This document shows positions 4,732-17,640 of a stretch of DNA of 64,000 nucleotides, piece after piece. The stretch's first letter is position 1, and the number at the start of each line of letters is the position of its first letter. The notes beneath the pieces are model-generated. The model did no database searches, was not told the origin of the DNA, and saw nothing but the letters and a program-made list of their open reading frames with translations. The stretch covers positions 320,001-384,000 of the forward strand of contig OY970061.1 in NCBI GenBank assembly GCA_963705255.1, given 5' to 3'. The stretch is from an uncultured Methanoregulaceae archaeon. GTDB lineage: Archaea; Halobacteriota; Methanomicrobia; Methanomicrobiales; Methanospirillaceae. Both the position numbers and the translations under genes were made by a program.

Positions 4732-5496
4732 TCATTTCGGGTACTCGACTCCGGGGTACGTCACCACCGGTGGGTGAACGGGAGGCGTGACGATGGTGAC
4801 TCCCGGGGGGAATTGTATCGTAAACAGGGAATCATTGAGATCCGGATTCACGGTAATGTTCCGATAATCGATCGATTCCGAATTCGTATCGTTATCATAA
4901 AATACCTGCATTTTCACCGGATTCGATGTCGAAACATCCACCCAGATTAAAGCGTCCGAGAATGCATATATGCTGTTATACTTCACAGCAAATTCGCCGG
5001 GACTTCTCGGCCGCATCTCCAGTATACAAAACGTTTTTCCATCCTTATTCTCGCAGGATTTTGTGATTATCTCTGAATCACCGGCAATTTTGTCGGTCAT
5101 CTTCCAGTAATCACCATCAGCCCAGGAGGTCCCGTTTATCCAGTCCTGCTGATCGATGGCCATCTCCATTACCTGGTTTGCTGCAGGCAGGTAATGGAAC
5201 GTCTGGTTTTCCCGGATAATTATTATCGTTCCTGCACCGTATTTCGGGGATTTCTGGAATTCAATCCGTAATTTGTCGGGATATTTCATGCTGATGGTAA
5301 AGACATCCGTCTCGTTTTCTATCCCTGCATACGTTCTTGTTACCTCGGCCGTATAACTCCTGATGGTATGAGCGTGCCGGAAGAAATCCGCTGCAATATT
5401 TTTTCCCGTATCGGAATTGACAGGATTCTCCATGCACCCTGAGAAACAAGATGCGATTAAAAGTATTAAAAAAAATAAAAATATTTTCTCATCCAT
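4732..5496 (-). CDS. LolA-like lipoprotein (lipoprotein-sorting fold)
   Basis: Lipobox-like FSGC; KYPDKLRIE, WVDVSTSNPVK, NITVNPDLNDSLFTIQFPPG. Confidence 0.8.
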   Translation of the reverse strand: MDEKIFLFFLILLIASCFSGCMENPVNSDTGKNIAADFFRHAHTIRSYTAEVTRTYAGIENETDVFTISMKYPDKLRIEFQKSPKYGAGTIIIIRENQTFHYLPAANQVMEMAIDQQDWINGTSWADGDYWKMTDKIAGDSEIITKSCENKDGKTFCILEMRPRSPGEFAVKYNSIYAFSDALIWVDVSTSNPVKMQVFYDNDTNSESIDYRNITVNPDLNDSLFTIQFPPGVTIVTPPVHPPVVTYPGVEYPK

Positions 5497-5668
5497 CAAT
5501 CGAGCTCCTTTTCTGGTATTAAGCGACTCCGGATCCGCATTCGTGGGTTGTGACGATTCGTCCGCTGCTCCCACCTAGGGTAACACTAATATTCGGGCCC
5601 GGAGTGGGGCTGCTCTTGTTATGATATAATTTTCAGATTCGTGAATACATGTGTGAACATCAGATTTG

Positions 5669-6700
5669 TTAAACCCGTGTTGGTGTTGTTGCAACCGGTG
5701 GAACCGGTGTGGATTCTTCGTCAATCAACTGATTTCCGGATCGATTCATGGACATTGTTGATGTCTGATTTGTTACATTCGTGTCGGAGTTGTTCCAATT
5801 TGTGGAAACGATGGTGATATCGGGCGTAGTTTGATCCAGTTTCTCCATTGATATACCATCAGAGGACGGGTTTTTCATTGCATCCACAACCAGAGGGAAT
5901 GACTCCGGATCGAATGGTGTGACAGCATAGTAGATCCAGACCGGTTTTATCGAGGGGCTCTTATCCTCCGAATTCCATGCATCGGACAGCTGGTATCCGA
6001 GCGTAATGCCCGCGATCTTTGTGCCTTCCGGGAGCGGACCCTGCAATTGCCGCATAGTGTTATGGTTCTGGAGCTTTTCATAGCCCTGTTCTGCCGATAT
6101 GACCGGCACTTCGCCATTGTATTTGTAGCTCGGCCAGGCCTTCACAATGGTGTCGATCTCCCCGTTCTCTCCAAGACCAAGATTGATCGTTGAACCAATG
6201 ACCGGCGATCCATTGAGAATCTGGATATACCTTACCTGGGTCATCCAGGGGTAATTCTCTTCGGTAGTCTTCGTTGTCAAATTGTACTTTGCTTGGTATC
6301 GTGGTACGGCATCGATCAGCTGTGCATCCTTTGGCAATCCACCGTATTTCAGAAGTGCTTTTTCTGCAAGAGCCGGGGCCTGTGCAGCAGAAGGAATACT
6401 GTTCTTCGGGCTCATGACAATCTTGTCATTACCCTCCTGAACGAGTTCGATGGATGTGATGGTATAGTTCGGGGCGGTGGCGGGAGCTTCTGGAAACGCT
6501 GTCGCAAGAGTAAGTGTTCCGGTTGTCCCCTGGATTTCCGGTATTCCCTTGGTATCATCAAATTTTACCTGACCCGGGGATCCTGTAAAGGAATGAATTC
6601 CCAATTCAGCGGCTCCAATGATCGCAACGCTGCATGCAATTACAATGCCGATAATTATCCAACGTTTATCAAATGCGGCCATGTCCATCACGTCCTCCAT
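5669..6700 (-). CDS. Membrane-anchored exported protein, PepSY/YycI-like repeats (putative peptidase partner)
   Basis: N-terminal TM helix; VISAEQGYEKL...ITLGY...IKPVWIY motif; start overlaps the stop of the upstream gene. Confidence 0.7.
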   Translation of the reverse strand: MEDVMDMAAFDKRWIIIGIVIACSVAIIGAAELGIHSFTGSPGQVKFDDTKGIPEIQGTTGTLTLATAFPEAPATAPNYTITSIELVQEGNDKIVMSPKNSIPSAAQAPALAEKALLKYGGLPKDAQLIDAVPRYQAKYNLTTKTTEENYPWMTQVRYIQILNGSPVIGSTINLGLGENGEIDTIVKAWPSYKYNGEVPVISAEQGYEKLQNHNTMRQLQGPLPEGTKIAGITLGYQLSDAWNSEDKSPSIKPVWIYYAVTPFDPESFPLVVDAMKNPSSDGISMEKLDQTTPDITIVSTNWNNSDTNVTNQTSTMSMNRSGNQLIDEESTPVPPVATTPTRV

Positions 6701-7425
6701 TCTGCTACGTAAATTGTGTTGTCATCGATCAGTTCACTGCCGGCAACCGTTCCCTGCCCGGGCAGATGGTCATTGTTCAACTGGTCTTGGGTATCGAATA
6801 TGACCCGGGTAAGTGTATTATCGCCCGCTAATACAGTCTGAGTGGCTCGCTGCCATGAATATGCTATTGTGTAGTCATTGTCAATGCAATTCTGTAAAAA
6901 CCTTGATGGGAGATTTGCATTGGCATTCTTAATAGATCCAAACCCGAGGATCCCGTGGGAGAATTTTAGTGCTCCTCCCCACTGGTTATCGAGCAGGGAC
7001 CAGCAGGTATCCAGCACAACCCACTTGTTGGCAGAAATCAGGCTGGTTCCCCATTTTTTATAGACCTCTGCCGAAGTGAGGGATCCTGTTGGCCAGTTGC
7101 TGTACTGGACAATCCCGACCTGGTTTGCATAGTCACCATGACCAAAATGATAGTGGAGATCTGCATCATTGAGTGCTCCGCCATTCGTAGCAAAGTCCGT
7201 GTCATCGACATTGGCATTCGTCTCATAAAACCGCTGTGTCCACCCTTGGCCTGTCAGCCAGTTATACACATAAGCGTGGCTGTTGGTTCCATAGGGATAG
7301 AGACTTGTCAGGGTATTATAATTCTCGACGTTGGTCATCGAGAATTGGTATGCTGACGCGGGCATTGCGATTGCGCACAATGTCACAAGTGCCAGCAATA
7401 TAATACTGGTATTCCTTTCGAGCAT
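6688..7425 (-). CDS. Secreted DUF6345-like protein with caspase/gingipain-type His-Gly...Cys motifs
   Basis: Signal peptide ...IAMPASA; DADLHYHFGHG and KWVVLDTCWSL. Confidence 0.75.
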   Translation of the reverse strand: MLERNTSIILLALVTLCAIAMPASAYQFSMTNVENYNTLTSLYPYGTNSHAYVYNWLTGQGWTQRFYETNANVDDTDFATNGGALNDADLHYHFGHGDYANQVGIVQYSNWPTGSLTSAEVYKKWGTSLISANKWVVLDTCWSLLDNQWGGALKFSHGILGFGSIKNANANLPSRFLQNCIDNDYTIAYSWQRATQTVLAGDNTLTRVIFDTQDQLNNDHLPGQGTVAGSELIDDNTIYVAEWRT

Positions 7426-7448
7426 TTTCGTCCATCTCCTTTTGCAGT

Positions 7449-7710
7449 TACGCTTCGCTCGAAGGCACGGGAAAACCTTCATAGGAACGGAAGATAATGA
7501 TCACATGCCTACGGGCGGGACCGGGTTCAGCCGCAATTTGACCTGAGGCGGACCCGTCCTTTCTTTTCGGGACAACCCCCGGCTGTCCGCAATGAGCGAT
7601 TTATAATTTGTGCATTTATTCTTTCTAACGCATTCATCTACAGGTCGAAGTGCTGAAAAACAAATGAAAAATTACGGAGCGAAAAAATGCAAATAGAATT
7701 ACCAGAATCA
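7449..7710 (-). promoter_or_regulatory. Conserved promoter + structured 5' leader, copy 1
   Basis: Homologous to 10457-10710 and 17293-17553; TATA-like TTATAAAT at 7606-7599; stems; AGGAG before the ATG. Confidence 0.85.
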
Positions 7711-7721
7711 GGCTGAATTTT

Positions 7722-7965
7722 GCGATCGCCGGCGGTTGCCAAACGGTTGGCGATCGCCCGGAGTTTGCTGCCCCCTCGCAAGTACAAGGCTAAGGCCTTC
7801 CGCTCCGGCACCGGCCCCGGGCTTGGCACGCGAATCACCGGCGCCCGGCACCCCCCGGGCCACGATACTGCCCCCGGCCCCGTCCGGCACTACACTCTGT
7901 GGCATTCCCCGCCAACCCCGCACTCCGGCCACCCCCCACCGCCCGCGAACGAAGGGGGTGGGCAT
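7722..7965. repeat. GC-rich dispersed repeat (family A), long copy
   Basis: GCGATCGCC...GGCGATCGC hairpin; distal part 7888-7965 is highly similar to 11767-11845. Confidence 0.85.
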
Positions 7966-8134
7966 CCCTCCCTCAGGCAGGAGCCAGGCCCCGACCGCCC
8001 CTGCAAGAACAGGCCAGGCATCCCGGCTCCAGCACTAACCCGAATATCCAAAAAGAGTGAATACTCGGTTAACCAAAATTTATTTACCTAACCGCCCAGC
8101 CCTAGCCTCAGAAAATTCAACCGGCCCGACCGCT

Positions 8135-8410
8135 CACGCTCAAAATTTTTCAAATCCGACAGGTCATCAGACCTGGAGAAGGAGAAGAAACCTTCAGGTT
8201 TCTTCGGACACGACCCCCACTACCCACACTCAAAATTTTTCAAACGCCTCTCGATCGCGATTGCGAGCGTGAAAAATCTCCATGGGAAACAAAGGTCGTT
8301 CAGACGTGAATGGTCTCCGGATTTGTGGGACGATCGCATTTGAAAAAAATAAATTGCGATCTGGATCGCGTTCAAAATTTTTTCATCGCGATCATGATCG
8401 CGATCGATCA
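8135..8410. repeat. Intergenic mosaic: family B hairpin (8160-8209), two cac.ctcaaaatttttcaaa boxes, clustered GATCGCGAT motifs
   Basis: caggtc-atca-gacctg then ggagaagaaacc-ttca-ggtttcttc; direct repeat at 8135 and 8226. Confidence 0.55.
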
Positions 8411-8635
8411 AAGTTAAACAGATCCTAGACAACGGGGCGAGCGACCCCAGCTGGTACCAGTTCCTTGGTGGTACTACCCCCTTCCGGAATGCCCCCTGTA
8501 TATTAGTGCAGATCCGGACTCATGCAAAATACCCGTGATGGGTATCTTACCCGGCCGGAGCACCTGACCTGTCACGGGTTGTTTACCCATCACAGGTTAC
8601 ATGACCCGCATCGCCTAGCCCCTCCCGAAGAGTCT

Positions 8636-9217
8636 TCATCGTATGTCAATCGCAATCCGGCTCACATTCCCGGCAACCGGGTCGAGATCGAACCGGACGA
8701 ATATCTCCGTCGAATTCACACGCTGGTATCCGTAGAGCGCCGGGGGATACGCAACGGTCTCGTTCTTCCGGAGCGGCCGCTCCTGACCGGAAATGCCAAT
8801 GAGGCCCCCGCCGGATCTGAGAAATTCCCTGACACAAATGTCATCAAGTGCGATTTTCACCAGCCTTGTACGATCGGCACCGGGATAATTCACCGGGATT
8901 GCGGTATAATCCGCAGATTTGGGATTGTCAGGATTGCTGATTGTGTAGGTTTCAGGAGGAGCCGGCAATTCTTTAACCGATCCCGGTTTCGCAGGAATCT
9001 GTGTCAGTATTGGTGGACAGGAAGAGCTGGCAGCAGGGATACCGGGTGTGGGTGGTACCGGGGAGGTCTGGATCACGGTGGGCGTTATGAGGATATCCGG
9101 ACCGGTAGGTGACGGGGTGGTTCCAGCCGGTGTTGTCGAATGAACTGTGTTGTTTGCACATCCGGTGATACCAACGATAAAAAAAAGGAAGATAATGGGA
9201 AGGAATACCTGCCGCAA
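8636..9217 (-). CDS. Hypothetical lipoprotein with Pro/Thr-rich linker
   Basis: Lipobox-like ITGC; starts 12 bp after the stop of the secreted protein gene. Confidence 0.8.
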   Translation of the reverse strand: MRQVFLPIIFLFFIVGITGCANNTVHSTTPAGTTPSPTGPDILITPTVIQTSPVPPTPGIPAASSSCPPILTQIPAKPGSVKELPAPPETYTISNPDNPKSADYTAIPVNYPGADRTRLVKIALDDICVREFLRSGGGLIGISGQERPLRKNETVAYPPALYGYQRVNSTEIFVRFDLDPVAGNVSRIAIDIR

Positions 9218-9229
9218 ATCTGTTCACCC

Positions 9230-10438
9230 CTAATTTGCTGTATCCAGCCTGACAACACTTGGATTTGTAAGTATTTCTACATTCAGCTGGGTCAGAGGAG
9301 CGGACGGGAAAATATAGCGTTTCAGAACGATGGGCTCCGTCTGGCCGCTCGACTGGTATACCATATTGGTAAACAGGGTATCACCGGGCACATCATTATC
9401 GCTGGTGATATTCTTTCCTTCGAGTGCCATGCTTTCTTCCAGACTCGTGCTTGAGGGTGATGACATCCAGGTCGTAGTCAGGCTCGTCGAACTCCCGGCT
9501 GTGGTATCATAGGTCGTGATGTACCATGCCTGCGTGGAGGAACTCCACTGCATCTGTCCTCTGATCGTATGGCCGGTGGAGACCGTTATTCGCGTGCTGT
9601 GGAAACTGTTTGTCCCTCTTACTGCCCAGCTGGCGATATCCCAATAATATCCGGTATCGATGTTATTCCATTCCAGTACCGGCTGGATGATCGCACGGTA
9701 TGCCGGATAATCTTCGATCGAGTTAAAGAGGAATATCGTCTTTGCAGCGGATCCGGTACCCGACCTAGAAACAGGAGATGCAGGGACATTCCAGTAACCA
9801 TCAAACAAGGTAAGCGGCAGGGAAGTTGTTGTACGGTCGTAGGCGTATTCGATCCAACCATAGAATGGAGTGGTCAGAGGAACGACACTTGACGTTGAGA
9901 CTTGATCTACCAGGGATTGTCCTTTGGCATCTGAATTCGTAAAGGCATCTTCATTAATCACAGTACAGATAACTTGGTTTTCGTAAATGACAAATGTCTT
10001 TTTCCCATTATCCGTGATGAATGCACCCGAAGGCACTTCAAAGACGTGAGACGCAGGGGAAGGGCCTTTCGGTGTGTTGATTATGCCGGAAGCTTTGTCA
10101 TTCACTTCGAAAATCTGTTTTCCTTTCTTATCGAAAACGCGTGTGATACCATCGTTCGAATGGTGAATAACAGCACCTGAAGGGACAGAGAATTTACCAT
10201 CGCCCTGATGGGTGATAACGGAAGATTCCCTGTCATCATTTGTCAAAAGGAATTCGCCGTTCATGACACCGGGCGTTTTTGAATAATCAAACTGAAGTGA
10301 TGGAATGGGAATTTTTTCCAGTTCAGCCAGCTTCCCGGGTTCTGGGATGGAAGACCCGTCAGCGCTCACCAGCGGTACCATCGCCATCGCTGCCAGCAGC
10401 AGTGCCAGCAGGACGACGCTCCATGTGCGTAGTTGCAT
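9230..10438 (-). CDS. Secreted protein: propeptide + putative glutamic peptidase (G1/eqolisin-like) domain
   Basis: Signal LLALLLAAMAMVPLVSA; beta-rich C-terminal domain with WNVP, IIQPVLEW and ALEG (candidate Gln/Glu dyad). Fold is inferred. Confidence 0.7.
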   Translation of the reverse strand: MQLRTWSVVLLALLLAAMAMVPLVSADGSSIPEPGKLAELEKIPIPSLQFDYSKTPGVMNGEFLLTNDDRESSVITHQGDGKFSVPSGAVIHHSNDGITRVFDKKGKQIFEVNDKASGIINTPKGPSPASHVFEVPSGAFITDNGKKTFVIYENQVICTVINEDAFTNSDAKGQSLVDQVSTSSVVPLTTPFYGWIEYAYDRTTTSLPLTLFDGYWNVPASPVSRSGTGSAAKTIFLFNSIEDYPAYRAIIQPVLEWNNIDTGYYWDIASWAVRGTNSFHSTRITVSTGHTIRGQMQWSSSTQAWYITTYDTTAGSSTSLTTTWMSSPSSTSLEESMALEGKNITSDNDVPGDTLFTNMVYQSSGQTEPIVLKRYIFPSAPLTQLNVEILTNPSVVRLDTAN

Positions 10439-10456
10439 TTCTTATACCTCCTTTCA

Positions 10457-10710
10457 TACGCTACGCTCGCAAGGCACGGGAAAACCTTCATAGGATCGGA
10501 AGATAATGATCTCATGCCTACGGGCGGGACCGGGTCCAACGAAGTTCGTCGCTTGGTGGACCCGTCCTTTCTTTTCGGGACAACCCCCGGCTGTCCACGT
10601 ATGAGCGATTTATATTTCGTATATTTATTCTTTCTAGCCCATTCATCTACCGGTCAGGTTACAAAAAAACAAATGAAAAATTACTGAACGACAAAACGCA
10701 AATAGAATTA
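10457..10710 (-). promoter_or_regulatory. Conserved promoter + structured 5' leader, copy 2
   Basis: BRE/TATA-like CGAAA-TATAAAT at 10619-10608; SD GGAGGT before ATG 10438. Confidence 0.85.
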
Positions 10711-10730
10711 TCTGAATTTGTTCAATTCTT

Positions 10731-10808
10731 GCGTTCGCCGGCTGATCCCAAACGGTTGGCGATCGCCCGGAGTTTGCTGCCCCCCCTTGCAAGTACAAGG
10801 CTGAGGCC
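10731..10808. repeat. Family A repeat core copy
   Basis: ccaaacggttggcgatcgcccggagtttgctgccccc identical to the 7722 copy. Confidence 0.85.
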
Positions 10809-10886
10809 CGTCCGACCCGGCACCGCCACCGGGCTGTATGTGTCCGTTCTTCGAACCACCAGAAAAAAGTTGATTAAATGTTTGAT

Positions 10887-11240
10887 TCACAGGATTTTGG
10901 ATTTCTCATGTTCAATTATAACGGCAATTTCTTTCTTCAACACCGGGATCTTGTGCTCAATGATATCCCAGAGGATCTCCAGGTCAACACCGAAATACCC
11001 GTGGATCAGGGTATCCCGGAATCCGGCAACAGATTTCCAGTCTGTAGCAGGAAACTGTGACTTCAGATCATCGCTTAAGTTCTTGACGGCTTCGCCGATG
11101 ACCTCGAAATTGCGAACAACCGCATCGACCCGCATCCGATCGTTTTTAAACTCCCCGAATGTCAGGTCACCAACATACGACAGGATATTCCCGACAACCT
11201 CCGAAATATCATTGAGATAGAGCAGCTGGGACCTATGCAT
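10887..11240 (-). CDS. HepT-like (DUF86) HEPN RNase toxin
   Basis: AVVRNFEVIGEA...RDTLIHGY (R-x4-H-x-Y). Confidence 0.92.
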   Translation of the reverse strand: MHRSQLLYLNDISEVVGNILSYVGDLTFGEFKNDRMRVDAVVRNFEVIGEAVKNLSDDLKSQFPATDWKSVAGFRDTLIHGYFGVDLEILWDIIEHKIPVLKKEIAVIIEHEKSKIL

Positions 11241-11517
11241 AGACAACGTCCTGCAGGATGGGATCGCGGATGAGGGGTTTGAGGGCAGCATCCGTCACCA
11301 GATCAACTTTCCGTTTGAAGAGGTCTTCGAGATAGAATTTTGTTCCCATAAAATTATCAAAGGTTTTTTTGCCATTCTGGAATGTGACGAGGATATCCAC
11401 ATCGCTGTCCATCCGCTCCTCTCCGCGTGCGAACGAGCCGAAGATGCCGATCTTCGCGACACCGAACCGGGCCTTCAGTTCCGGTTCATGCTGTCGGAGG
11501 AGTGCGAGTACGTCCAT
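11233..11517 (-). CDS. MNT minimal nucleotidyltransferase antitoxin
   Basis: GIFGSFARGEERMDSDVDILV...KVDLV; overlaps the HEPN gene. Confidence 0.92.
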   Translation of the reverse strand: MDVLALLRQHEPELKARFGVAKIGIFGSFARGEERMDSDVDILVTFQNGKKTFDNFMGTKFYLEDLFKRKVDLVTDAALKPLIRDPILQDVVYA

Positions 11518-11629
11518 ACAATTCCTGTATGTGAGTGGTTGGTCTGTTCTTATTATTAATGCATTGACGATGCAGAGATTTTTATTCATGGAGTTTTCCA
11601 ATTTCTTCAGCCCCCGGTTCATTAGCCAC

Positions 11630-11845
11630 GCGATCACCGGCTCGTGCCAAATGGCCGTGCATTCACCGGCCCTGGCTGCCCCTTGCAAGAACCGGCCCAG
11701 GCCCCGTTTGCCCCATCATCGGCTCCCGGCCCCGCCACGCGATCTCCGGCCCGGCACCCACCCGGCCACTACTCTCAGTGGCATTCCCCACCTCCCCCGC
11801 ACTCCGGCCACCCCCCGCCGCCCGCGAACAAAGGGGGTGGGCATG
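11630..11845. repeat. Family A repeat, diverged long copy between the divergent TA pairs
   Basis: gcgatcaccggctcgtgccaaa...gtggcattcccc...gcactccggccacccccc...cccgcgaac.aagggggtgggcat. Confidence 0.75.
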
Positions 11846-11961
11846 TATCAGCACGAGCCATGGCCCCGCCGGTTCAGAATTCTGCCAGGGCTCCCCCCTT
11901 GACATTGACCACACCCTTATTGTACTGGAATCACCAAACACCATACTAAGAACGTGAACGC

Positions 11962-12285
11962 ATGCCCGAACTCGTCACACCGCTCAGGCAAAAAAGTCCT
12001 GTCATAAAAAAACTGGAAGCAGCAGCCCCGGCTATCCGCTCGCAGTTCGGAGTAACCAGGATCGGCATCTTCGGCTCGTTCGCCCGCGGCGAGCAGACCC
12101 GGAAGAGCGATGTGGACGTGCTCGTGGATTTTGCCGAAGGGTATGCAACCCTGAAAAACTTTGTCGGGCTTGCCGATCGCCTTGAAGCGCTCTTCAGGCG
12201 GAAAGTGGATCTCATCACGGTCGAGGGGGTTGACAAGTATATCCGCCCGGGAGTCGAGGCTGAGGTGATCTGGGTTGAAGGATGA
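11962..12285 (+). CDS. MNT minimal nucleotidyltransferase antitoxin
   Basis: GIFGSFARGEQTRKSDVDVLV...KVDLIT. Confidence 0.92.
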   Translation: MPELVTPLRQKSPVIKKLEAAAPAIRSQFGVTRIGIFGSFARGEQTRKSDVDVLVDFAEGYATLKNFVGLADRLEALFRRKVDLITVEGVDKYIRPGVEAEVIWVEG

Positions 12286-12625
12286 CACGGTCTACCTCCG
12301 CCACATCCTTGACGAGATCCTTTTCCTGAAACGGATATCGCACGACCGGACTCTTGACGAGCTCATCAATGATGACTATTTTGCTCATGCGGTCCGGAGC
12401 GCGATCGAAGTAATCGGGGAAGCAGCAAAAAACGTACCCGACCGGATCAAAAAAGAAAGCCCGGAAATACCGTGGCGGGAGATGGCAGCACTTCGCAACC
12501 GGATCATTCACGGCTATTTCAGGATCGATTATTCCATTGTCTGGAATGTGATCGTCCAGGATCTCCCGGAGATTGAACCAAAAATTTCTGCACTTCTCCA
12601 GAGACTGGATGGCAGATCCGGATAA
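12275..12625 (+). CDS. HepT-like (DUF86) HEPN RNase toxin
   Basis: EVIGEAAK...IPWREMAALRNRIIHGY. Confidence 0.92.
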   Translation: MKDDTVYLRHILDEILFLKRISHDRTLDELINDDYFAHAVRSAIEVIGEAAKNVPDRIKKESPEIPWREMAALRNRIIHGYFRIDYSIVWNVIVQDLPEIEPKISALLQRLDGRSG

Positions 12626-12711
12626 CCGGGATGTGCTTCCGGAATGAATACAACATGTATTCAATTGAGTAAAAATGTATTCACCGGCAGGTCCGGGAAA
12701 GAGGAGGGAAG

Positions 12712-13362
12712 ATGCCAGAGAAATTTCATACCGAACTGAACCGGTTGAAAGAGGACATGCTGGACCTGGCCCGCTTTTCCAGGAATATGCTGTGCGACTC
12801 ACTCAAAGCCCTGACAACGGAAGATATCGAAGCAGCAAAGGAGGTCGCATCCCGTAAACGACATATCCAGGAGACGATGATCGAGCTCGAGGAACGGACA
12901 TACCAGCTGATTGCCCTCTACCAGCCGATGGCAAAGGATATGCGGGAGATCGCCTGCATGCTCAAGATCATCTCTTCGGCAGAACGGATCGGGAGATACG
13001 GCAAGGATATTGCAAACATGGTCAAGCGTGTCAAGGGCCAGCCCGAGTTTGTCCAGCCGCTCCCGATCGTCCATATGGCCGGGCTGGTTGAAGCGATGAT
13101 CAATGATGCCATCCGTGCGTTTGAAACCGAGAGCACCGGGCCCATCAAGGATTTCTCGACGCGCGACGATACCGTTGACTCGTTGTGGCATTCGATCCTC
13201 CGGGAGACGCTCACCTTCATGATGGAGAACCCGAAGACGATCACCCGGGGGACCTATTATGTCATGGTCGCACGGTATCTCGAACGGTCGGGCGACCATG
13301 CCTGCAAGATGGCAGAGAACGTCAATTACCTGGTGACCGGGGAACGGATCGAGATCAGATAA
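12712..13362 (+). CDS. phoU: Phosphate signalling protein PhoU
   Basis: YQPMAKDMR, ERIGRY, DDTVD, RYLERSGDHACKMAE. Confidence 0.93.
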   Translation: MPEKFHTELNRLKEDMLDLARFSRNMLCDSLKALTTEDIEAAKEVASRKRHIQETMIELEERTYQLIALYQPMAKDMREIACMLKIISSAERIGRYGKDIANMVKRVKGQPEFVQPLPIVHMAGLVEAMINDAIRAFETESTGPIKDFSTRDDTVDSLWHSILRETLTFMMENPKTITRGTYYVMVARYLERSGDHACKMAENVNYLVTGERIEIR

Positions 13363-13959
13363 TCCTTTACGTGCTTTGAAACCCGCTGGGAACCTCGTGC
13401 AGCCTGCATCGCAGACTTCAGTTTCTGCTCCAGCACTTCGCGGGGCGGGAGATCGGTAAGGTATTCAGAGACATGAATCCCGGATTTGTCGAGTTGCAGG
13501 AGACGGATCTGTTTCTGGTCCGCACCAGCACAAAGGATCAATCCAAGAGGTTGTTCCTCGCACGCTTCTTTCTCGTTCTGCTCAAGCAACCGGAGGTACA
13601 GTTCCATCTGTCCCTTGTATGCCCCATGATTAACAGTAGGATCGGGGTCCTCGATTCCAACATAGACTTCTTTTATCCGTGCAAGAACAATTCGCTCAGC
13701 GCAGCTGATTTTTGGATCATGCCGGGCTCCAGGAGCACAAGGCTCCAGAGTTGTAAAAAGAATGGAATTGTCCAGTAGGTTGCCCTGGTTTTTTCTTTCC
13801 AGGAGAGTATATTCCGCGTGATCACCATCGCGCGCCGCGATATGCCGCTTCAGTAGTACCGTCCGCTTTGTAAACAACCGCTCCTACTAATGGAGCCTCT
13901 TTGCCGTCCCGACGAGGCTCGTGCTCCGTATCTTTCATGGCGGAGATTGCCATCTCCAT
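13326..13959 (-). pseudogene. Chimeric remnant: Zn deaminase domain joined to the C-terminus of a YhcG/DUF1016 nuclease
   Basis: PLVGAVV (other frame), HAE...TTLEPC...C, IEDPDP, then YKGQMELYL...PLGLILC...IHVSEYLTDLP; frameshift near 13835. Confidence 0.75.
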
Positions 13960-14013
13960 CAGGGGATTTTTCACAAATCCACCTCCGTCATATTTTCGAA
14001 TTGAAATGGTGCA

Positions 14014-15854
14014 TCAATTCCCCTTCCTCCGCATGATTATTATACCGGCACATGCCCCTCCAATAATGGCGAGCCAGATTGAAATCGGCGTGGTTTGAGG
14101 GGTTGCCAACTTCTCATAAGAAATGACCTGAGTTCTTTCAGGTTCGGAATTCGTTGCATTACCCTCCCTGTTGAAGTAGTAAACATGCTTCAGAGATGTG
14201 GCGGCGAGATAGTTCCCCTCTCCTGATAGCTTCAGCCCTGTCATCCATTCGGGACTTGAATACTGCCAGAGTGGTTTTCCGGTGCTGTTAAATAAAACGA
14301 TTTTGTCGGAAATCCCTGCACCAGTAAATTGACCATCGCTTGAGAGGGAAATACTGGTAATCCATTCGTTATTCGTATGAGTCAGGGGATTGATATTCTC
14401 ATAACGCCACTCAGGCAATCCGGTCCGGTTGAATACGCTAAGATAGTATTGTGAACCTGCGGCAGCATGGTTTCCATCTGATGAGACAGAAACTGATTTA
14501 AATTGAGGTCCGCTGGTAAAATTCCATTGAGTCCGACCATCCCGGGAAAATACGAACAGTGTATGGTCGTCAATCACCGCATCAAGTTCTCCATCGTTTG
14601 AAACCCCGATTCCCGCAACAGCAGTTTCTACGGGGGATGTGAACAAGACAGTGCCATCATTGTCAATAACAGAAATCTTTCCCGGTATGCCCCGGTATCC
14701 TGCTACCACGCACGTGGACCCGTCTCCCGATACACTCATTAAACCGACCGGTTCTGAAAGATTGACCTTCGCTACGACAATTCCCTCTTTATTAATGATG
14801 GAAAGATCATTGTCCCACGAAGCGTACACATAATTTCCATCATCCGATGTCGCGATCGCCCGTAAAGTTCCATCGGGTATGAATTTCCAGATGATCGATC
14901 CGTTCCGATCGAATCGTATGATACTGCTCACGCTCTGCGGAGGACTCGGGGAGTCATAATAATATGCAGCCGTGACAAGACTTCCGTCGTTGGTGATTTT
15001 GACGTACCCGACAGGCTTTCCTGGCACCTGGTATGTCCAGAGGATGGCTCCACTGTTGTCATAAAGCCTGACAATTCCCATGTCGGATCCTGCCACAACA
15101 TAGTGCCCGTCATCAGAACACGAAGCTTAAAACACCTCCAAAGCCCAAGGAGTCTGACCAGATCGGTAGCGGAGACGTCGTTGAATTCGATCCATTACGA
15201 TAGATAGTAATGTTCCTCTTGAGAGATAACTCCCAGTACGGGTAGTAGTCCAGCTGCCCTCCTACCGGAGGATTGGTGTCGATGGGGAATGGACCTGCTT
15301 CGTATCCGGAAGTTGTTCGCAGTATAGTCACTGAACTTGGGATTGACTCCCCATCTCCCGGAACCTCAAGAGAAAACTCTGAATCACGAATAGAGTACCC
15401 CTTTGAAATTCCGTCGATGTATACTTCAGCTCCGTCTTCAGGCCAGTGTATGACATATCTTCGGGTCGAAGAATTTGACTGAGAATCGGGCTGCCGGATC
15501 TGGATCAGCTGAGGGTATACATCCTGGAATCCTCCGGACGGTGAGGAGGCGGGGAGGGTATCGGAGAAAACGGTGGTATTTCCAATAACAATGGAGTACT
15601 GATGTTCTTTAGATAAGATCCGGTCGTTTGCAGCAACAGTGAGAGCATTTTTTTCAATATTGCCTACAAAAATGTCATCGATATACACGCAGTACCTCTC
15701 CGTTCACCGGCCAGTGGATGATATAGTATCCCGTTACATTGGCGGAAGAACTGGAAATTCCTGATTGTGTATTTGTTCCCATTGCCCCCGAAATAAGTAT
15801 ACCGAACAAAAAAGAAATGAAAAATACCAGAATCCAGAATTTTGTTTTTTTCAT
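14014..15854 (-). CDS. Exported PEGA-like + WD40/PQQ beta-propeller protein with C-terminal anchor (two frameshifts)
   Basis: Signal MKKTKFWILVFF at 15854; frames join near 15690 and 15115; repeated SxDGxY...W blades; C-terminal TM + RRK. Confidence 0.75.
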
Positions 15855-15908
15855 TTGCTACTCCTTTATTTTTTATTGTAATATGTTTTTACAAAAAAAG
15901 TTGAATGC

Positions 15909-17276
15909 CTATAGGCGATAAATGAAGCTCGCCGATGGCTGGAAATCTTCCCAATAAACATTGTTCGATGCTGAGTCTGAGTAATATACTTTTTGTACAC
16001 CATTCCGTGAATCAAAACCATAACACGCTCTTGCGTGACCACTTGGCTTTGTCGGATTTATGTGTCCCGGGAGAGTAACGGTTTTCAAGGGGTACCCAAA
16101 TCCAATACTATTGGAAATTTCATAATAATACGGATTTCTTGACTGACGACCCCACGGACCAACGCCAATTCCTCCATTTAAATAGTCAGAATAATACTGG
16201 AATTCAGCATCTGCTGAGGGTGCCCCGGCATAGCCACTGAGATTAACCACTCCCATCTTTGTTGCTATCTGATTTGGAGTCTTTCCCTGTGAGATGATTC
16301 CTTTTATCCGGTAATATTCTGTCATTGACCAGGCAGCGAAAATCATGCACCAGTCTCTTGCTCCCTGATACTGGACCAGCTGAGGGCTTAGAACTCCATA
16401 GTTTGAGGAGGCAGCAAACCCTGACAAAATTGTGGTTTTTAACGATTCGGAGTTTTCATTTGAGGTTCCAAGATTGATGCTGATTTTCTGTGCGTTCATT
16501 TTTTCAGCAATTTTCAGGGCTGTAATTTTGTCAGTTACTTTGTTTATCCGGTCATTTTCTTTGTTCCAGAGCCCAATCCCCGATTGAGTATTTGCCTGAG
16601 GGATTGTGTCATAGTAGGAAAATTCTCTCTCCTTGCCTTGGGGAATTTCCTGATAATCTTTGAATATCGCATCAATCACAATTTTTTTGTTTTCCTTAGT
16701 TTGTGGATTCGTCAGTTCCGCCAGTAGTGCAAGATACGGACTATCGTAGCAGATCAATTTTGTAGACTGAATGGTGTATCCCGTGAAATTTGTCTTCACA
16801 ATTTCATTTGCCTTCATCACAAGACCGGGAACATCAATTTCCTGTGGCGAACTCGTCCCGACATATTTTATCGGCGAGCCAAGGACTTTACTTGCTGCAA
16901 CCCTGATCTTTCCGATTTTCTCACCATTTTTCTCGATCCAGAATTGGTAGAAAATTCTCTCTCCATTTAAGTCATAAATGGTGAGTGGTTCCGGATTGAG
17001 ATTTGCACCATCCCAATTGATAGAATCCCCCATAGTTTTCAGGGTGATTGTCTCGGCAAGCGATTCTGTCGCAAAATTCGTCGCAGTCTCAACTGAGATG
17101 TAATTTGCTGAAATCGATTCTTTTGAGACTGGCGGATTTATTACGGCCGAAGAAAGTGGGTCAGCCACTACAGCATTTTTGTTATATGTATCCGCACTCA
17201 CTATCGGTACCATCGCCATCGCTGCCAGCAGAAGTGCCAGCAGGACGACGCCAAATTTCAGTATTTTCATTTTCAC
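15909..17276 (-). CDS. Secreted protein: propeptide + papain-like (C39-like) peptidase domain
   Basis: Signal LLALLLAAMAMVPIVSA; YQGARDWC, GHARACYGFD, VYYSDS (Gln, Cys, His, Asp). Confidence 0.78.
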   Translation of the reverse strand: MKMKILKFGVVLLALLLAAMAMVPIVSADTYNKNAVVADPLSSAVINPPVSKESISANYISVETATNFATESLAETITLKTMGDSINWDGANLNPEPLTIYDLNGERIFYQFWIEKNGEKIGKIRVAASKVLGSPIKYVGTSSPQEIDVPGLVMKANEIVKTNFTGYTIQSTKLICYDSPYLALLAELTNPQTKENKKIVIDAIFKDYQEIPQGKEREFSYYDTIPQANTQSGIGLWNKENDRINKVTDKITALKIAEKMNAQKISINLGTSNENSESLKTTILSGFAASSNYGVLSPQLVQYQGARDWCMIFAAWSMTEYYRIKGIISQGKTPNQIATKMGVVNLSGYAGAPSADAEFQYYSDYLNGGIGVGPWGRQSRNPYYYEISNSIGFGYPLKTVTLPGHINPTKPSGHARACYGFDSRNGVQKVYYSDSASNNVYWEDFQPSASFIYRL

Positions 17277-17292
17277 TTCCTCCTTTTTTCGA

Positions 17293-17553
17293 TACGCTCC
17301 GCTCGGAAGGCACGGGATAAAATTTCATTTGGGAGAGGGAATTGTCACGCGCCTACGGGCGGGACCGGGTCTAACGAAGTTCGTCGCTTGGTGGACCCGT
17401 CCTTTCTTTTCGGGACAACCCCCGGCTGTCCACGTATGAGCGATTTATATTTCGTATATTTATTCTTTCTAGCCCAATCATCTACCGATCAGGTTACAAA
17501 AAAACAAATGAAAAATTACTGAACGACAAAACGCAAATAGAATTACCAGAATC
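17293..17553 (-). promoter_or_regulatory. Conserved promoter + structured 5' leader, copy 3
   Basis: Nearly identical to copy 2 from gcctacgggcggga to aatagaatta; gene-proximal loop diverged but closing stem kept. Confidence 0.85.
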
Positions 17554-17565
17554 TGCTGAATTCCT

Positions 17566-17640
17566 GCGATCACCGGCTCGTGCCAAACAGCCGTGCATGA
17601 ACCGGCATCCGGCTGCCTCCTGCGAGTACCCCCGGGCCCC
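17566..17640. repeat. Family A repeat, diverged copy
   Basis: gcgatcaccggctcgtgccaaa identical to the start of the 11630 copy; ggctgc..cctgcgagtac is echoed at ~19928. Confidence 0.7.

Follow-up and report, generated by a model that had tools for sequence, protein, structure and literature searches.

The window analysed here, 64,000 nucleotides (nt) from an uncultured Methanoregulaceae archaeon (positions 320,001 to 384,000 of contig OY970061.1, assembly GCA_963705255.1), contains three minus-strand gene cassettes that share a common block of ~300–400 nt, made up of a TATA promoter, a ~150-nt leader with three hairpins, a Shine-Dalgarno site and a signal peptide. The first gene of each cassette (leads 1 to 3) is followed by a gene or genes for putative anchored partner proteins (Table 1). 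The lead open reading frames (ORFs) were confirmed, with 17270 as the likely ATG of the last. A repeat search of the window recovered a 249-nt block three times, at 7496-7744 (71%), 10505-10753 (the reference copy) and 17340-17588 (92%), together with a 96-nt repeat, at 10359-10454 and 17191-17286 (81%), that in cassettes 2 and 3 takes in the Shine-Dalgarno site together with the signal peptide. When the 520 nt upstream of each lead gene were aligned three ways, the mean column identity was 80%, with conservation extending from around -300 nt into the signal peptide. The repeats and the alignment agree with the initial annotation, made from the sequence of the window, that the three minus-strand units have one layout. 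Its description of the lead genes as unrelated past the signal peptide is also upheld, with the mature lead proteins falling into separate BLAST clusters and the signal peptide as the part they have in common. The "family A repeat" that it placed upstream is present at all three units, but as it has only 3–4 copies in the 2.6-Mb genome it does not constitute a separate, dispersed repeat family and is instead the distal portion of the same upstream block.

A palindromic, GC-rich element of ~40 nt (GCGATCGCC...GGCGATCGC-like) lies ~130 nt upstream of each leader in the window, at 7722-7762, 10731-10771 and 17566-17606, with one further copy beside a HepT/MNT pair (11630-11670). This element could be an operator or a terminator.

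Table 1. Coordinates of the cassette features and of the toxin-antitoxin genes in the window (TM, transmembrane segment).
Feature	Position	Strand	Basis or remark
Cassette 1 upstream block: distal part with palindromic element, TATA-like box, leader	7426..7830	-	covariance-model match 7452-7598
Lead 1: signal peptide and DUF6345, caspase-like (clan CD) fold	6688..7425	-	Pfam DUF6345, E 4.7e-11
Partner 1a: N-terminal TM anchor and YycI/FTP(PepSY)-like ectodomain	5669..6700	-	13-nt overlap with the lead-1 stop
Partner 1b: lipobox protein, weakly LolA-like	4732..5574	-	probable start near 5496; LolA_like, E 2.6e-6
Cassette 2 upstream block with leader	10439..10830	-	covariance-model match 10460-10606
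Lead 2: signal peptide, N-terminal beta domain, linker, C-terminal G1 (eqolisin)-fold domain	9230..10438	-	invariant Gln252, Glu340
Partner 2: lipobox lipoprotein, 193 aa	8636..9217	-	12 nt after lead 2
Cassette 3 upstream block with leader	17277..17620	-	covariance-model match 17296-17441
Lead 3: signal peptide, N-terminal region, Peptidase_C39_2 (papain-fold) domain	15909..17276	-	invariant Cys310, His414, Asp434
Partner 3: three ORFs reading as one gene with two frameshifts	14014..15854	-	frame analysis
Partner 3, N-terminal TM stub	15675-15854	-	
Partner 3, PEGA-like repeats	15113-15688	-	by eye only
Partner 3, beta-propeller and C-terminal TM	14014-15096	-	PQQ_2, E 4.6e-11
Two HepT/MNT toxin-antitoxin pairs	10887..12625		HepT-like, E 1e-28 and 2e-26; NTP_transf_2, E 1e-16 and 3e-14

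An alignment of the copies in the genome resolves a leader core of ~146 nt into three hairpins, with a TATA-like box ~25 nt upstream and a Shine-Dalgarno site and ATG 20–45 nt downstream. A covariance model built from seven leader copies gave 77 matches among the loci that were fetched, and across these matches compensatory changes on both sides were observed in 35 of the 37 base pairs. Paired cells made up 90.9%, compared with 39–52% when the 3' partners were slid, and none of 500 shuffles attained the observed values. The alignment was fitted to the covariance model, which makes these counts lean toward it, yet the RNA structure appears to be under selection, judging from the controls with slid partners and from the variety of pair types. 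The leader is therefore a conserved, covarying structure placed between promoter and start codon, as is typical of cis-regulatory structured leaders. RNAalifold recovered one helix only from a MAFFT alignment of 43 full leaders, which is attributed to the poor quality of that alignment. No Rfam 15 family (4227 families) matched anywhere in the window at the gathering threshold, or any of seven leader loci at E up to 1, and the leader is regarded as a candidate new RNA motif. Over 43 divergent copies, the most conserved stretch is the single-stranded CCCGCCCGUAGGCAUG between hairpins 2 and 3 (e.g., window 10505-10520); being both unpaired and the best conserved part, it has the features expected of a site where a ligand or protein binds.

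Two modes of action for the leader were considered and rejected. A leader peptide, "MKVFPCL", was ruled out, as an indel in cassette 3 shifts the frame, other copies (those heading the small-ORF operon described below) stop after 8 codons, and the region covaries as a helix. A helix closing the leader over the ribosome-binding site was assessed through duplex energies between the leader 5' flank and the ribosome-binding region, for which the cognate mean (-12.98 kcal/mol) was close to the non-cognate mean (-12.79 kcal/mol) and 1450 of 5000 permutations did equally well or better. This lack of a sequestering helix is in keeping with the cassettes being an ordinary paralogous surface-protein family, in which a strong promoter, 5' untranslated region and signal peptide were spread by duplication and gene conversion among unrelated envelope or nutrient-acquisition operons, with neither immunity nor antagonism involved. 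The leader would then act as a stability or translation element and convey no common signal, and the second genes would encode anchors, chaperones or subunits that hold housekeeping enzymes at the S-layer. Near-identical DNA running through the signal peptide is also what gene conversion would leave. The covariation over three helices, however, indicates selection on structure, beyond that on a promoter alone.

There are eight copies of the leader in this genome and up to 20 in its relatives. The covariance-model search found it in 16 of 36 genomes of the same genus, while 24 genomes spread over five further families of its order gave no match. In a draw across the whole family, it was present in 20 of 30 genomes of the genus and, outside the genus, in 8 of 120 genomes, these eight coming from 6 of 18 genera, with up to 20 matches per genome, often in arrays at 3–5 kb spacing. 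The leader was found solely within the window's own family, and the sources assign the name Methanoregula to relatives of the cassette proteins. The consensus signal peptide occurs only three times in this genome, each time behind a leader, so that promoter, leader and signal peptide travel as one module. Within one genus, species differ in copy number from 0 to 20, and the arrays lie beside toxin-antitoxin and defence-type genes; this is unlike the behaviour of housekeeping genes and argues against the surface-protein explanation. Sheath proteins were also considered as a source of multi-copy secreted proteins but were set aside, Methanoregula being reported as lacking them (PMC11576556).

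The genes that follow the leader were surveyed over 112 matches in 20 genomes, this one included. In 95 of these copies the next ORF has a hydrophobic N-terminus, and 74 of the 95 possess the near-invariant core LLALLLAAMAMVP. Fifteen copies are followed by the small-ORF operon, 12 of the "MPKSK..." type and three of a second type, with the same second small gene after both, and two precede something else. The expectation that further leader copies stand before exported proteins thus holds for the 95, by prediction, but not for the 15, where the products are non-secreted. The first genes behind the 112 leaders form 34 clusters, with ~30 families among the exported proteins. Pfam matches in this cargo were to Peptidase_C39_2 (9 of 54 and 6 of 35 scanned), reprolysin-type M12 (three), DUF6345 (two, in addition to that of the window) and Transglut_core (one). 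All enzyme domains recognised by Pfam have a peptidase or transglutaminase-like fold, and the only other matches were to PKD and, below threshold, to PepSY. Counted by cluster, 38 of the 95 cargo proteins are peptidase-like, including the lead-2 family, and 57 have no recognised fold. The many cargo families that carry no protease signature are readily accommodated if the cassettes encode ordinary surface proteins.

Lead 1 belongs to DUF6345, with a Pfam match of 43 bits against a cut-off of 26.9. A search of the PDB with the single sequence gave no match. The AlphaFold2 (AF2) model of lead 1, aligned with 26 relatives, has a predicted local distance difference test (pLDDT) score of 91.5, and over residues 21-225 its structure matches are SAVED-CHAT (VIA Z 16.7, root-mean-square deviation (rmsd) 3.0, 184 residues aligned), MALT1 (15.5), caspase-8/9 (~15) and RgpB (14.9). 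With metacaspase 9 included, the matches other than SAVED-CHAT have Z values of 14–15.5, and the predicted fold is the caspase-hemoglobinase alpha/beta fold. His96, Gly97 and Cys141 are invariant in 27 DUF6345 sequences, and their placement in an active site is inferred from this invariance without superposition. The suggestion of a caspase/gingipain fold with a His-Cys pair is therefore strengthened by the structure match together with the invariant His96 and Cys141. Lead 1 resembles clan CD members (caspases, MALT1, metacaspases, gingipain R, CHAT) in this fold and in the invariant His-Gly and Cys, but it is only 6–12% identical to them, is a small, single-domain secreted form, and is filed only as DUF6345. 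It is also paired with a YycI/FTP-like membrane protein, and not with a pro-domain, SAVED or TPR module. Relatives of lead 1 include DUF6345 proteins fused to PKD, a combination typical of archaeal surface proteins that again suits the surface-protein alternative.

Homologues of partner 1a carry Pfam YycI (PF09648) and FTP (PF07504), whilst partner 1a itself matches FTP at E 0.0035, below the cut-off. A YycI/FTP-like gene directly follows DUF6345 in nine of nine loci, comprising four of four cassettes and five of five further loci from named assemblies, and four of these five further loci have the leader upstream. When mature lead 1 was co-folded with the partner 1a ectodomain in three runs, the interface score ipSAE was 0.92, 0.92 and 0.91, compared with 0.00 for the best of three controls. 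Of 157 solved complexes 116 attain this mark, as do 2 of 215 mismatched pairs; these counts are only rough here because the co-folding used alignments made in this analysis. The runs share at least 90% of contacts, and the pLDDT of partner 1a is at least 84. Included in the predicted interface are lead-1 residues 95-99 and 139-142, which are the loops carrying His96 and Cys141, and the C-terminal strand of lead 1 pairs with partner 1a residues 134-142. The predicted complex supports binding between this lead and its cognate partner, as had been proposed. Given that the prediction places the YycI/PepSY-like protein over the catalytic His/Cys loops, its most likely role is that of an inhibitor or latency factor, and an inhibitor would fit best. 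Membrane-anchored partners in general would suit docking as well as inhibition, but here the predicted interface covers the catalytic His/Cys instead of a distal docking surface, which is a further point against housekeeping enzymes held at the S-layer. Taken on both sides, the surface-protein explanation appears rather unlikely.

PepSY/FTP domains are in-cis propeptide inhibitors of M4/M36 metallopeptidases. Partner 1a is similar to these, and to YycI, in that its homologues carry the corresponding Pfam domains and in that the co-fold places it across the catalytic loops; it differs in being a separate, membrane-anchored protein that is paired with a cysteine protease. A YycI/PepSY-like membrane protein lying over a caspase-like active site would represent a candidate new mode of inhibition.

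Lead 2 was modelled by AF2 with a pLDDT of 84, as a pro-domain-like N-terminal beta domain (~45-162), a disordered linker and a C-terminal domain (191-402). The C-terminal domain has the two-sheet beta-sandwich of the eqolisin fold, aligning with scytalidoglutamic peptidase over its full length with an rmsd of 2.7 A over 184 residues. The VIA Z values were 18.3 for 2ifr, 18.1 for 2ifw, 17.6 for 1s2b and 16.8 for neprosin, compared with ~11 for generic jelly rolls, and the Foldseek match to 2ifw has an E-value of 4.5e-9. Gln252 and Glu340 are invariant in 33 close relatives and in 40 diverse relatives, the latter having only four invariant columns. The two residues are 88 apart, which is within the 81–95 residues given for the Gln-Glu spacing of G1 peptidases (PMC3009609). 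Among 44 distant relatives, three reached Peptidase_A4, one of them (P0232, 23.4 bits) above the cut-off of 22.3. The superposition, the invariant Gln and Glu, their spacing and this transitive link to Pfam together lead to a reading of lead 2 as a divergent G1-type glutamic peptidase, so that the G1/eqolisin Gln-Glu chemistry initially suggested is favoured, albeit with no direct match to the family model.

With the MEROPS G1 family (eqolisins, including scytalidoglutamic and aspergilloglutamic peptidases; Peptidase_A4), lead 2 shares the fold, together with a putative Gln/Glu dyad, invariant and at a G1-like spacing. It differs in its N-terminal beta domain of ~120 residues and linker, which bring it nearer to the layout of the neprosin zymogen (7zva, aligned over 66-402), and on this model lead 2 is possibly a zymogen as well. 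The lineage that hosts lead 2 consists of freshwater methanogens of neutral or mildly acidic habitats, and not of acid-secreting fungi or thermoacidophiles. A search of 1.84 billion representatives with the C-terminal domain returned 900 relatives at E up to 0.001. The domain (window 9233-9871; proteins P0112-P0257) defines a very large and nearly uncurated G1-like superfamily of 900 representative clusters, with fusions to TIG, PKD, cohesin, Kelch, fn3 and Por_Secre_tail domains among its members.

Lead 3 is a member of Peptidase_C39_2, at 27.8 bits against a cut-off of 24, and it also has weak matches to papain-family profiles; a single-sequence search of the PDB returned no match. Cys310, His414 and Asp434 are invariant in a 10-sequence alignment of the lead-3 family, and with the domain match above its cut-off this triad is consistent with the papain/C39 Cys-His-Asp chemistry first suggested for the protein. 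In two other C39 cassettes, the second gene encodes a homologue of the beta-propeller of partner 3 (E 1e-44 and 1e-9).

Among second genes generally, a crude hydrophobicity rule found an N-terminal hydrophobic segment in 37 of 45. Lead and partner families co-occur, and this applies to several other lead families as well, each with its own partner family. C39-like leads have one partner family in four cassettes and the beta-propeller family in two, in addition to that of the window. This linkage among relatives shows that a lead and its partner are passed on together, with the leader module common across units. That partners track the lead family is thus supported by the co-occurrence of families, most clearly after DUF6345. 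As to what the partners are, the YycI/PepSY-like protein, the lipoprotein and the beta-propeller were correctly recognised at first, but the LolA_like match of partner 1b is weak (27.7 bits, below the cut-off of 30) and the PEGA-like repeats, seen by eye, appear to belong with the propeller to one split gene. No family match and no detectable relatives among the other partners were found for partner 2, and ESM Atlas gave nothing usable for it.

The computational results consist of the repeat, the RNA covariation, the distribution, the folds, the invariant residues, the lead-partner linkage and one predicted complex. The explanation that accounts best for these, and which is held with moderate confidence, is that the cassettes form a co-regulated set of operons whose products are hydrolases exported by the Sec route, in many cases proteases, and that each operon adds a tethered binding partner, with a recombining module joining the whole set. 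Each unit would be a small operon in which a common archaeal TATA promoter and the ~150-nt leader RNA precede an in-frame, common Sec-type signal peptide, and this promoter-leader-signal-peptide module would have been recombined onto ~30 unrelated exported-protein families in the window's family. The cargo in the window would be a DUF6345 protein acting as a caspase-like cysteine protease, a glutamic peptidase of divergent G1 type whose N-terminus resembles a pro-domain, and a C39-like protease of the papain fold. The product of the next gene in each unit would be an extracellular protein, anchored in the membrane and specific to its lead family, which binds the enzyme as a tethered inhibitor or latency (immunity-like) factor, either shielding the surface of the producer or holding the enzyme until its release. 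One signal, acting via the common leader, would control all cassettes as well as the small-ORF operon. In this explanation we infer the transcription start, co-regulation, secretion, proteolytic activity, inhibition and target, which may be other microbes or the cell's own envelope.

Several observations weigh against this explanation. As 57 of the 95 cargo proteins have no recognised fold, "proteases" may cover only part of the set, and as 15 of the 112 leaders head small, non-secreted ORFs the leader is not specific to exported enzymes. Lead 2 has no direct match to Pfam Peptidase_A4, or to a PDB sequence; neither it nor any of its 33 close relatives matches Peptidase_A4 even at E 10, and the proposal of Gln252 and Glu340 as its catalytic dyad draws on invariance and spacing without residue-level superposition. 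The co-folding covers one cognate pair, and a partner predicted to lie over the active site might be cleaved by the enzyme or assist its maturation instead of inhibiting it. Conservation of partners is uneven, with a detectable common partner family in two of four cases for the lead-2 family, at least two partner families for C39, and a LolA-like third gene in none of the five related DUF6345 loci. The linkage counts also partly mirror descent, because kin are not independent. Lastly, partner 3 is apparently split by frameshifts near 15688 and 15100, judging from its reading frames. These could represent decay or assembly error, and the latter is possible since the single-contig genome is just 89.5% complete by marker genes.

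A broader interpretation is that of a hitherto unrecognised regulon of up to 20 exported protease-inhibitor pairs of at least four catalytic classes, in which the leader would be a new class of structured RNA that senses one signal or binds one protein (possibly a small-ORF product). It would be an archaeal counterpart of effector-immunity systems, acting through Sec-secreted enzymes and inhibitors tethered outside the membrane, and serving interference competition or predation on neighbours in methanogenic communities. This is put forward only tentatively. Like polymorphic toxin loci (PMC3482391), the cassettes put a variable enzyme after a constant 5' portion and a small, family-specific gene directly after the enzyme, and they occur in arrays, patchily, and near toxin-antitoxin genes. 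Polymorphic toxins, however, have a conserved N-terminal trafficking or filament domain with C-terminal toxin tips, whereas the cassettes combine promoter, RNA leader and signal peptide with whole secreted enzymes that have only the ~25 residues of the signal peptide in common. Immunity proteins of polymorphic toxins are also cytoplasmic, whilst the cassette partners are predicted to be extracellular and anchored. The polymorphic toxin/immunity layout noted in the initial annotation, an effector followed by a lipoprotein, has a possible counterpart in the family-specific downstream gene, with one pair predicted to bind, but a shared N-terminal domain is absent; because the conserved N-terminus is merely a signal peptide, the comparison is an analogy only.

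Families in which a conserved promoter, 5' region and signal peptide precede unrelated mature domains, presumably through recombination, include those of the Borrelia "upstream homology box" (ospE/ospF/elp) and Mycoplasma vlp. These are bacterial surface lipoproteins involved in antigenic variation or host interaction, and they are not known to have a covarying structured leader or cognate partner genes.

The leader, a function for DUF6345 and the cassette system were not found described in targeted searches of PMC/bioRxiv full text, in which the archaeal polymorphic-toxin literature is incompletely covered. The enzymes themselves belong to or resemble the known clans CD, G1 and CA, and the layout resembles that of effector-immunity loci. 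Very little is known of interaction or antagonism between methanogens and their neighbours, or of how secretion is regulated in archaea, and the locus offers a defined, testable system for both. Searches for the ligand or binding protein of an RNA usually begin from a leader with many natural variants and clearly linked genes, such as this one. The exported enzymes span four protease classes, in which DUF6345 and the G1-like superfamily (~900 representative clusters with almost no Pfam coverage) are effectively uncharacterised. The module could, in addition, be used as an expression and secretion tool for methanogens.

The small-ORF operon has the same promoter and leader as the cassettes, and encodes a basic, non-secreted protein of 89–120 aa ("MPKSKSVTEGGIPLYLLP...") followed by a protein of ~130 aa. 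It lies near positions 1757606, 2057933, 2456456 and 2467582 of G000:C1 (loci L004-L008 and L078-L080), and neither protein has a match in Pfam, PHROGs or ESM Atlas. The products are candidate regulators of the leader, or the operon may mark a mobile element. If the latter, the leader could belong to the small-ORF element, an integrated plasmid or virus-like entity with its own early operon, and the cassettes would be accessory cargo whose spread reflects mobility of the element and not a host regulon. The operon stands behind four of the eight leaders in this genome (15 of 112 overall), two copies at distant sites have ~2.8 kb in common at 92–97% identity, and small-ORF operons adjoin signal-peptide cassettes in several genomes. 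Islands with PIN, DUF3800, PDDEXK, Schlafen/AlbA_2 and HepT/MNT genes, and the patchy distribution of the leader within the genus, are also what an element of this kind would produce. Yet its ORFs have no integrase, capsid, terminase or replication match in Pfam or PHROGs, the 2.9-kb element has no match in phage or plasmid collections, the first hairpin (20 nt) has no exact match in IMG/VR, and the three cassettes of the window have no adjoining small-ORF operon. Cargo of a mobile element is consequently considered an improbable origin of the cassettes.

A gene for a small secreted protein with a PPC (pre-peptidase C-terminal) domain is divergent from two leader copies, at L079:9243-9686 (-) and G000:C1:1757137-1757478 (-), and a gene for a winged-helix regulator is located just past it in one island.

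The toxin-antitoxin neighbourhood described for the window is confirmed by Pfam, with two HepT/MNT pairs that sit between cassettes 2 and 3 and outside the cassettes. Also in the window, the minus-strand ORF at 13326-13877 matches a deaminase model (Inv-AAD/dCMP_cyt_deam) over residues 15-89 and then the C-terminal part of the YhcG PDDEXK nuclease over 79-153, and its sequence suggests an unusual fusion or the remains of a chimera. The second island has YhcG as a complete gene (L079:6894-7985).

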